39,611 bases of DNA, taken from the UHGV virus genome UHGV-0179848; one strand, 5' to 3'. Positions 5,618-7,585 of the stretch are shown piece by piece. Below the pieces are notes generated by a model. It did no database searches. It saw nothing but the letters and a program-made list of their open reading frames with translations, and was not told the origin of the DNA. The position numbers were made by a program, and so were the translations under genes. The stretch is from a virus. The stretch's first letter is position 1; each line of letters opens with the position of its first letter.

Positions 5618-5643
5618 ATCCCTGAAACCTCGGTTTACGGGAA
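5618..5643. other. gix-like recombination site (left)
   Basis: Reverse complement TTCCCGTAAACCGAGGTTTCAGGGAT matches the Mu gix consensus as I recall it (TTCCTGTAAACCGAGGTTTTGGATAA), about 55 bp upstream of gin start. Confidence 0.7.
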
Positions 5644-5787
5644 ACGGTAAATAAGGCTGCTGATGCCCTGCCATCGGGTGGAACCGCCGTGGCAGCAAAC
5701 AGACTCGCCACCCCAGTAAATATTAATGGTGTTCCTTTCGACGGGACGCAGGATATCAACATCACGTCAGGAATGACGCAGTCAACC
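5626..5787. repeat. Left inverted repeat of invertible segment (~160 bp)
   Basis: Inverted copy of 6900-7060, including a ~58-bp perfect block GCAGCAAACAGACTCGCCACCCCAGTAAATATTAATGGTGTTCCTTTCGACGGGACGC. Confidence 0.8.
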
Positions 5788-6012
5788 GCAGATGGCCGGT
5801 ATGTACAGAACGTTCAGCTTGGAGCACAGAGCTATCATTCACCCGGAGGCAATGAAATGTCATGGAATTACAGTGCGCCTTCCGGTTGTATGCTTTCCGG
5901 TATTAACGTGCAGGAAACAGGAAAAAACTCTGCCGATAACATTGGCGGGGTTTATTTCCGTCCTGTGCAGATATATATCAGTAATGCATGGCGTACAGTT
6001 TCATCTGTCTGA
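5689..6012 (+). CDS. Alternative tail-fibre C-terminal cassette (Sv-alt), promoterless and in inverted orientation
   Basis: Encodes AANRLATPVNINGVPFDGTQDINITSGM...YISNAWRTVSSV, paralogous to the C-terminus of the expressed fibre; frame stays open back to the gix site at 5641; track start is GTG. Confidence 0.6.
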   Translation: MAANRLATPVNINGVPFDGTQDINITSGMTQSTADGRYVQNVQLGAQSYHSPGGNEMSWNYSAPSGCMLSGINVQETGKNSADNIGGVYFRPVQIYISNAWRTVSSV

Positions 6013-6046
6013 TGAAAGAAAAAGGGTGCGATAAGCACCCTTTAAG

Positions 6047-6589
6047 TTATTCAGGCTGTTCGGGCCATTTAATGGCATCAAATTCAGCTTCAGTTTTAAT
6101 GGCGGATGGTTCCATTTTTTTCACCTGACTGATGTATGCCATCCATCGGGTAAGTGCGGCTCTGTCTTCATCACTGATGGTGCCCAGCTGTAATTCTGTT
6201 CTCCAGTCATTAATTTTTTCATATGCCTGATTAAGATATAACTGGCGCATTGCTTCCAGTTTTCTTGCGTAGTTAACCGGAATACGGGAGATCACGCCAT
6301 TATCAAACTTCCAGTTACCCGAAATATCAGCACCTTCAGGGAGTTCGTCGACTTCAACCACAGAGAACCCCGCAGGATACAGCGCCGAAGCGTCCTGTGA
6401 TATTGAGCAGATAATGCCGCTGTCAGGTGTTATACAAAGTTTATATTTTTTGGTGAATAATGGCAGGGACTCGTAGAAATCCTTACCATCTTCACTCTGA
6501 AAATACTGTACATCATTACCATAGAGGGTGTTTTCCGGGTAATATCGTTTAACATTAATCAGTTGCATAAACATCACCATGTGAATCAA
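6047..6589 (-). CDS. Tail fibre assembly protein (Mu U-like)
   Basis: C-terminal ISDEDRAALTRWMAYISQVKKME...KWPEQPE parallels Mu U; directly downstream of the fibre gene. Confidence 0.85.
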   Translation of the reverse strand: MIHMVMFMQLINVKRYYPENTLYGNDVQYFQSEDGKDFYESLPLFTKKYKLCITPDSGIICSISQDASALYPAGFSVVEVDELPEGADISGNWKFDNGVISRIPVNYARKLEAMRQLYLNQAYEKINDWRTELQLGTISDEDRAALTRWMAYISQVKKMEPSAIKTEAEFDAIKWPEQPE

Positions 6590-6688
6590 TGATAAAAACA
6601 GGAATAATACTATCGCTATATACGGACAGGGGTTGTCTGAGATAACGCATATATCAGGCGCTGCCTGCCGTACGCCATGAGCCGTTAA

Positions 6689-7585
6689 TTAAATACTTGC
6701 AGCGGATACCCAATTCCCATTAATACAATATTGTATCTGTCTGTAATAAACACGGTCATCACCACCACGCATTTCCCAGTCTCCGTCAGTCTTAAAACCG
6801 GTAATCACATTTCCTGATGACAGGGAGTAATTATATTCCAGTCCGCTGCTTAATGCCTGCGCTCCCAGTCTTACCCCTGTAACATAACGCTGATTGGCCG
6901 TTGATTCCGGCATTCCTGACGTAATGTTTATATCCCGCGTCCCGTCGAAAGGAACACCATTAATATTTACTGGGGTGGCGAGTCTGTTTGCTGCCGCAGC
7001 GGTGCCGTCCGATGGCAGGGCATTCGCCGCCTTATTTACCGTTTCCCGTAAACCGAGGTTATTGATAAAGGTTCCTTTGTCCGGGATATCCGCGCCATTC
7101 TGGTCCCTGCGCAGATAACGCGCATCGCCTTCTCCCTTACTGTAAACATCAAGATTCAGACGAGCCGTCGGTTTATCCAGTACATCGTCAAAATTCCGGG
7201 ATTTCTCCAGTGCTCCCACATCAGCAGCAGCCAGACTGTCTTTTCCTGATAATCCTCCCAGCCCCAGATGACGGCGGGCAGCAGCCTGTGCTTCTGCACC
7301 TGCATCCGCAATCTCCTTAAGGTTGTTTTTCCGGCTGTATGCGTTTGCTGCAATGATTGCCTTAATGGCTGTCACCAGCTGGTTCAGTTTTGCCTTATCC
7401 GGCTGAACCTTTCCTTCTGTCAGAATGGCAAGCAACTCTGCCTGCACGATGTTCAGCCAGTCCTGACCGATATGGCTGATCCCTTTGCGTCCGTCACCTT
7501 CAGTAAACCATTTAACCTGCGTGCCCTGAGAGGGGGCCAGTGGTGGCATATCGGTCACACCTGAATTGTTGTCGACAAAATACAT
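6689..7585 (-). CDS. Tail fibre protein (Mu S-like): constant N-terminal part plus variable C-terminal part currently fused in frame
   Basis: N-terminal domain typical of P2 H / Mu S fibres; contains gix-R at codons ~173-181; C-terminal 118 aa paralogous to the Sv-alt cassette. Confidence 0.85.
   Translation of the reverse strand: MYFVDNNSGVTDMPPLAPSQGTQVKWFTEGDGRKGISHIGQDWLNIVQAELLAILTEGKVQPDKAKLNQLVTAIKAIIAANAYSRKNNLKEIADAGAEAQAAARRHLGLGGLSGKDSLAAADVGALEKSRNFDDVLDKPTARLNLDVYSKGEGDARYLRRDQNGADIPDKGTFINNLGLRETVNKAANALPSDGTAAAANRLATPVNINGVPFDGTRDINITSGMPESTANQRYVTGVRLGAQALSSGLEYNYSLSSGNVITGFKTDGDWEMRGGDDRVYYRQIQYCINGNWVSAASI
6900..7060. repeat. Right inverted repeat of invertible segment
   Basis: Reverse complement aligns with 5626-5787 at high identity. 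Confidence 0.8.
7043..7068. other. gix-like recombination site (right)
   Basis: TTCCCGTAAACCGAGGTTATTGATAA, 23/26 identical to the remembered Mu gix consensus, inside the fibre gene. Confidence 0.7.

Follow-up and report, generated by a model that had tools for sequence, protein, structure and literature searches.

A Gin-type invertible tail-fibre segment with a single assembly gene in an Sp18-type Mu-like prophage of Escherichia coli

Several DNA invertases of one family flip alternative C-termini of phage tail fibres, among them Cin, acting on the C segment of P1, Pin, acting on the P segment of e14, and Min of p15B. In the P1, e14 and p15B segments, a tail-fibre assembly (tfa) gene accompanies each alternative tip. 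The closest described system is the G segment of phage Mu with its invertase Gin, found also in D108, SfMu and the B segment of Shigella boydii, in which the gene order gp48, S, invertible segment, gin and com/mom is the same as in the DNA analysed here, the 39,611-nucleotide virus genome UHGV-0179848, which is referred to in its whole length as the window. Mu has two assembly genes, U and U', one behind each tip, whereas the invertible segment of the window has one tfa. We read this locus as a reduced Gin-type host-range switch in which a single assembly protein (Tfa) would be shared by both fibre tips and tfa would be expressed from signals of its own, and we assign this reading a probability of about 0.6.

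The window contains a complete Mu-like prophage with a 100% match to E. coli STEC2018-607 (NZ_CP075697.1), and it belongs to the same prophage family as Sp18, a Mu-like prophage of E. coli O157:H7 Sakai. An invertible region of Sp18 was noted in 2009 (Asadulghani et al.), and its gene content was left undescribed there. An invertible segment with a single tfa, or its consequences, was not found described in literature searches, most subscription journals lying outside their scope, so that the absence is unproven. The likeness to Mu is seen in the homologous gix sites, in the constant part of the fibre, in one of the two tips and in Tfa, and the invertase is 75% identical to Gin of SfMu. The locus is nevertheless much smaller than its Mu counterpart, with a segment of 1.4 kb against 3 kb and fibres of 298 and 303 aa where those of Mu have 504 and 488 aa; its inverted repeat is longer, with 179 nt against 34 bp.

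The first-pass annotation had proposed that the segment is driven by Gin and bounded by two inverted gix-like sites of 26 bp with their outer ends at 5618 and 7068, and both proposals hold. A Gin-family serine invertase of 186 aa (5003-5563, minus strand) adjoins the segment from outside; it carries the Pfam domains Resolvase (PF00239, E 7e-51) and HTH_7 (PF02796, E 2e-14), with the catalytic Ser9 in the context MLIGYIRVSTNDQ. Compared with the Mu gix sequence taken from NC_000929, the left site ATCCCTGAAACCTCGGTTTACGGGAA (5618-5643) is identical at 20 of 26 positions and the right site TTCCCGTAAACCGAGGTTATTGATAA (7043-7068) at 23 of 26. The two are inverted with respect to each other and have in common the inner half-site TTCCCGTAAACC and the GA/TC core dinucleotide, which reads TC at 5630-5631 and GA at 7055-7056. 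They lie at the outer ends of an inverted repeat with arms at 5626-5804 and 6882-7060, which are 88% complementary; the left arm encodes the proximal part common to both variable cassettes. A repeat of about 160 bp had been described, and while its presence is confirmed, its length is 179 nt. No other inverted repeat of more than 16 nt was found in 4500-8500. When the 5' region of gin was compared with Mu gin in a test for the recombinational enhancer (sis), nucleotide conservation at synonymous sites showed no clear excess, and Fis sites were too degenerate to call. A natural variant of the right gix site, in which AACGTCGG replaces AACCTCGG beside the core, occurs at locus L091, in a lineage that shows both orientations (L091 and L095).

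The inversion takes place in nature and is site-specific at gix. Between two public assemblies (L092 and L097), the inversion of a 1435-bp block is the sole difference, with 0 mismatches in 7.4 kb, that is, in 2 x 3008 nt of flank and in the 1435-nt block itself, and the breakpoint falls at the gix site. About 20 differences between the repeat arms move with the inverted block; the crossover thus lay in the shared gix portion and was not one of homologous recombination within the repeat. Strain JNEC-KY203 has the same prophage, 97% identical, in which the segment is inverted and the Tfa protein unchanged, and the O157:H7 strains Z869 and Z1813 differ by the same inversion. Ten contigs encode the identical Tfa, five in each orientation. 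Both isomers, for which a check had been suggested, are thus present in public assemblies, and in the natural flipped isomers the assembly gene faces away from the late operon, as had been predicted. An in-silico flip of 5632-7054 joins the alternative cassette in frame to the constant part, giving a fibre of 303 aa; this exact protein is encoded on 55 public contigs and the 298-aa form on 3, a ratio that is not a frequency because gene callers often miss the 298-aa open reading frame (ORF).

Of 5426 complete E. coli genomes, at least 200 have this layout, and many of these are Shiga toxin-producing E. coli (STEC). A genome was counted for the orientation, that of the window or the flipped one, in which it held 80% or more of the query; 184 genomes were flipped and 17 had the window orientation, counts that come from non-independent genomes and from assemblers that give the majority isomer only. 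In most sequenced lysogens, therefore, the fibre gene ends in the alternative cassette and is convergent with tfa. The excess could stem from clonal sampling, from majority-calling by assemblers or from a true bias of the switch. A self-biasing switch, with a promoter in the segment reading toward gin in one orientation, was considered and is speculation, since the 184:17 excess is its sole support and is otherwise explicable by non-independent genomes and majority-calling.

The segment holds a variable fibre C-terminus, a U-like gene and an alternative cassette on the opposite strand, where the first-pass annotation had placed them. The constant N-terminal part of the fibre (Sc; 7069-7585, minus strand) lies outside the segment and follows a Mu gp48-like gene. 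In the window orientation it continues into the cassette Sv (6689-7042, minus strand) as a 298-aa ORF at 6689-7585. The alternative cassette S'v (5626-6012, plus strand; 128 codons) is silent in this orientation. Residues 1-196 of the fibre align to residues 1-189 of Mu S (domain E 1.9e-42), and residues 230-297 align to the receptor-binding tip of Mu S, 436-503 of 5yvq_A (domain E 2.5e-19), an alignment in which the fibre corresponds to Mu S minus about 240 residues of the shaft. For the S'v tip, a match was obtained to that of the short tail fibre of phiTE (9cuy_c, E 2e-15) and a weaker one to the Mu S tip; its identity is 58-59% with the fibre tips of P2-like gpH, SfMu gp52 and Rac-SA53 and 51% with that of POP15. 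Sv and S'v, which share 35% identity in the last 75 residues, are of one fold family. In NZ_CP075697.1 the Prokaryotic Genome Annotation Pipeline (PGAP) passed over the 298-aa fibre ORF and called two short ORFs inside it (6924-7118, plus strand, and 7156-7305, minus strand); it labels the silent S'v cassette a pseudogene.

Selection is seen on the tips and on tfa. The ratio of nonsynonymous to synonymous substitution rates (dN/dS) of S'v is 0.04-0.12 among nine distinct alleles, with dS up to saturation; S'v is thus under strong purifying selection and is not a remnant. For tfa (173 aa; 6047-6568, minus strand), dN/dS is 0.1-0.2 across relatives, which is likewise strong purifying selection. 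Its product belongs to the Caudo_TAP family (PF02413, E 3.6e-19) and matches Mu U in PDB 5yvq_B (E 6e-17). In agreement with the proposal of a single assembly gene, tblastn with eight different Tfa proteins found no second tfa in the whole 39.6-kb window. The closest relatives of this Tfa outside the Sp18-type family are 47-58% identical (Rac-SA53 Tfa, 47%; loci from IMG/VR, 55-58%), and these adjoin S'v-type tips, whereas the window tfa stands behind an Sv-type tip. A scan of a contig set with one genome per species gave no Tfa relatives, because such a set evidently misses this prophage.

In the mechanism that we propose, the invertase recombines the gix sites and flips 5632-7054, so that Sc is fused either to Sv, whose tip is Mu-S-like, or to S'v, whose tip is of the P2-like and SfMu gp52 type, and one Tfa most likely assembles both. 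Structural work on Mu describes Tfa as a tip-specific partner that remains on the fibre. In Tfa, tip binding is the role of the variable N-terminal domain, and trimerisation that of the conserved helical C-terminus (PMC9608196). Both window tips fall in the tip family of Mu S 436-503 and Tfa in the family of Mu U, the partners in the Mu S/Mu U complex (PDB 5yvq); unlike that pair, one Tfa would here bind two tips as dissimilar as Sv and S'v. Tips of the S'v type have a tfa 1-5 nt downstream in a P2-like phage, in SfMu (gp52/gp51), in POP15 and in Rac-SA53, and are likewise followed by tfa in IMG/VR loci L043-L054 and L073. As the S'v-type tip directly precedes tfa in every non-invertible context examined, this tip type is a normal client of Tfa. 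Mu U, which partners the Sv-type tip of Mu S, is 91% identical to SfMu gp51 and 85% to P2-variant G, both of which partner S'v-type tips; this near-identity indicates that one Tfa lineage naturally pairs with both types of tip.

Once the segment is flipped, tfa converges with the fibre gene, and a hairpin terminator lies between them. The stop codons of S'v and tfa are 34 nt apart, and the hairpin at 6021-6043, detected by a terminator scan on the minus strand, is probably a bidirectional terminator: it folds with -19.8 kcal/mol (z -5.8) on the plus strand and -17.7 kcal/mol (z -5.0) on the minus strand, and the minus strand has a good T-run, the plus strand a weaker one. In this arrangement tfa is most likely transcribed from signals travelling with it, located in the 120-nt spacer that separates the Sv stop codon from the start of tfa (6569-6688, minus strand), and, because such signals move with the gene, Tfa would be made in either orientation. 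The corresponding spacer in Mu and SfMu has 2 nt. The spacer contains CTGATAT (6657-6651), followed 37 nt downstream by TATAGC (6620-6615), and it resembles the region upstream of mom in this prophage. Between lineages, its proximal 45 nt show 0-2 differences and its distal part 10-16 in 42. A 21-nt imperfect palindrome, CTGATATATGCGTTATCTCAG, occupies 6657-6637, and its opposite strand, CTGAGATAACGCATATATC, resembles the late box of the DUF6645 gene (CTGAATTAACGCAAAATGG).

A putative late-promoter box, YTGAWWTNNCGCAAAR, with a -10-like hexamer 37 or 38 nt downstream, has exactly three perfect matches in the window, all on the minus strand: at 28976 (TACGCT), upstream of the lysozyme gene lys, at 21054 (TATGCT), upstream of the protease/scaffold gene I, and at 4978 (TATGAT), upstream of the DUF6645 gene. 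These boxes probably mark late promoters for the Mor/C-family activator of the phage (28954-29376). The Mu box, TTATGCCCCAATAA, differs from YTGAWWTNNCGCAAAR, and its distance to the -10 hexamer is equal, as measured from the Mu C box to the -10 at Pmom.

Derivatives of the locus that have lost gin are found at L021, L022, L024-L027 and L029 and in 7 of the 5426 complete genomes (e.g. CI5, M1, M3 and M18). In these, gin is gone except for its last 25 or so nt, as is the whole Sv cassette, and the locus is fixed as DUF6645(-) / tfa(+) / S'v-Sc(-), that is, in the flipped layout. They retain an intact tfa with the same upstream spacer, and they have a common deletion junction that includes a 43-nt filler. 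The retained spacer and tfa of these derivatives speak for autonomous signals of tfa, as do the length of the spacer, the near-invariance of its proximal part and the hairpin between the convergent genes.

Several observations weigh against the reading of one self-expressed Tfa for two tips. Promiscuity of the window Tfa, whose identity to Mu U and to SfMu gp51 is only 29-34%, is extrapolated from another Tfa lineage. Scans of three spacer types gave no convincing sigma-70 promoter upstream of tfa. Of the late-promoter box, the tfa spacer has the first 7 nt alone, together with a -10-like hexamer; it is without the CGCAAA core of the three clear late promoters, and the two other spacer types (the L012 and L033 groups) have no late-box match at all. 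A C-dependent promoter was considered for the tfa spacer and is not claimed, the match being confined to CTGATAT and the -10-like hexamer. The low divergence of the proximal spacer runs on through the first 180 nt of tfa, and the gin-less loci are mosaics; recombination can therefore explain part of the conservation of the spacer. For the latter reason, selection on tfa while the segment is locked is not strictly proven, and the value of the locked lineages as proof of such selection is weakened. Moreover, a gp436-family head-tail gene (18054-18473) has an internal stop, and hence this copy of the prophage may be defective and perhaps does not make infectious particles. The weakest point is how tfa would be expressed in the flipped state. 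All the same, one Tfa shared by the two tips is the reading that needs the fewest assumptions, and we regard expression of tfa from its own signals as most likely. The more specific version, in which an orientation-independent late promoter belonging to tfa would supply one in-segment chaperone for both receptor-binding tips, with tfa convergent to the fibre gene across a bidirectional terminator in the commoner state, stands at even odds.

The failure to find a promoter for tfa would also suit a fibre that needs no chaperone when it ends in S'v, tfa then serving Sv only and being harmless as an antisense gene in the flipped state. There is no co-directional tfa behind S'v, and certain phages whose fibres are Mu-like, Sf14 among them, have no Tfa homologue (PMC11821841). 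We consider this explanation unlikely, since all S'v-type tips examined outside the Sp18-type family directly precede a tfa and the gin-less derivatives have lost the Sv cassette yet retain tfa intact.

The comparison of relatives bears on whether a former U' gene has been lost, which would make flipped virions fibre-defective, a dead end or the off state of a decaying prophage. Two tfa genes are indeed present in Mu, SfMu and other invertible segments, and in the IMG/VR loci with two tips and a gin-like gene (L067 and L076-L078) two tfa genes are opposed. Signs of decay can be found as well: the window prophage has a pseudogene, and in E. coli TOE17 (locus L008, about 3990-4560) the segment is rearranged, with palindromic tfa fragments in which tfa minus its first 36 codons stands beside an inverted copy of its last 52 codons, the hairpin terminator being duplicated. 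All Sp18-type loci retrieved, on the other hand, have the same order of tip, tfa, terminator and opposed tip, with at least three tip pairs and two tfa types, and the O157:H7 relatives, about 83% identical across the region, keep the layout unchanged; a single tfa is thus characteristic of the family as a whole rather than peculiar to one strain. Together with the strong purifying selection on S'v, the majority of flipped genomes among those examined and the persistence of lineages fixed in the flipped state, this makes the loss of U' improbable as an explanation. Equally hard to credit is a chaperone supplied in trans in the flipped state by the tfa genes of further prophages in the same cell, of which STEC has many: related fibre and tfa DNA lies at up to 9 places per genome and prophage-prophage interactions are documented in O157 Sakai (PMC2669165), but unrelated prophages would have to be co-induced, the resident lambdoid Tfa proteins are distant from the window Tfa, and the retention of tfa in derivatives without gin and Sv would be left unexplained.

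The switch itself is ordinary; it is the single chaperone for two tips, antisense to the fibre operon in the common state, that gives a testable question. If one Tfa does serve both tips, Tfa and tip would be paired less strictly than in the Mu model, with its one chaperone for each tip, and the persistence of gin-less derivatives with an apparently inverted chaperone gene would be explained. With its length of 1.4 kb, the segment would then be a compact host-range cassette with two states, and fibre tips and chaperones are the parts that are swapped in engineering the host range of phages. The locus also raises the question of how a late structural gene that is antisense to its operon gets transcribed.

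The prophage is inserted in the cellulose synthase gene bcsA (window 1-383), and its closest relatives are Sp18-type Mu-like prophages in STEC and O157:H7. The annotation of NZ_CP075697.1 places on the minus strand the transposase genes, the Mor/C-family activator, the lysis, head and tail genes, the baseplate genes gp45 to gp48, the recombinase, the DUF6645 gene and com/mom. A 'tRNA-OTHER' is annotated at 21671-21758, flanked by the genes for virion morphogenesis and head morphogenesis and lying on the plus strand, the phage genes being on the other. The DUF6645 gene (2831-4912, minus strand) encodes 693 aa with a SASA/SGNH acetylesterase domain and a DUF6645 domain. This esterase-like gene, between gin and com/mom, is extra relative to Mu, which has no gene there; it has a late-promoter box of its own and is 55-64% identical among relatives, and its product may be a tail-associated enzyme that modifies the receptor.

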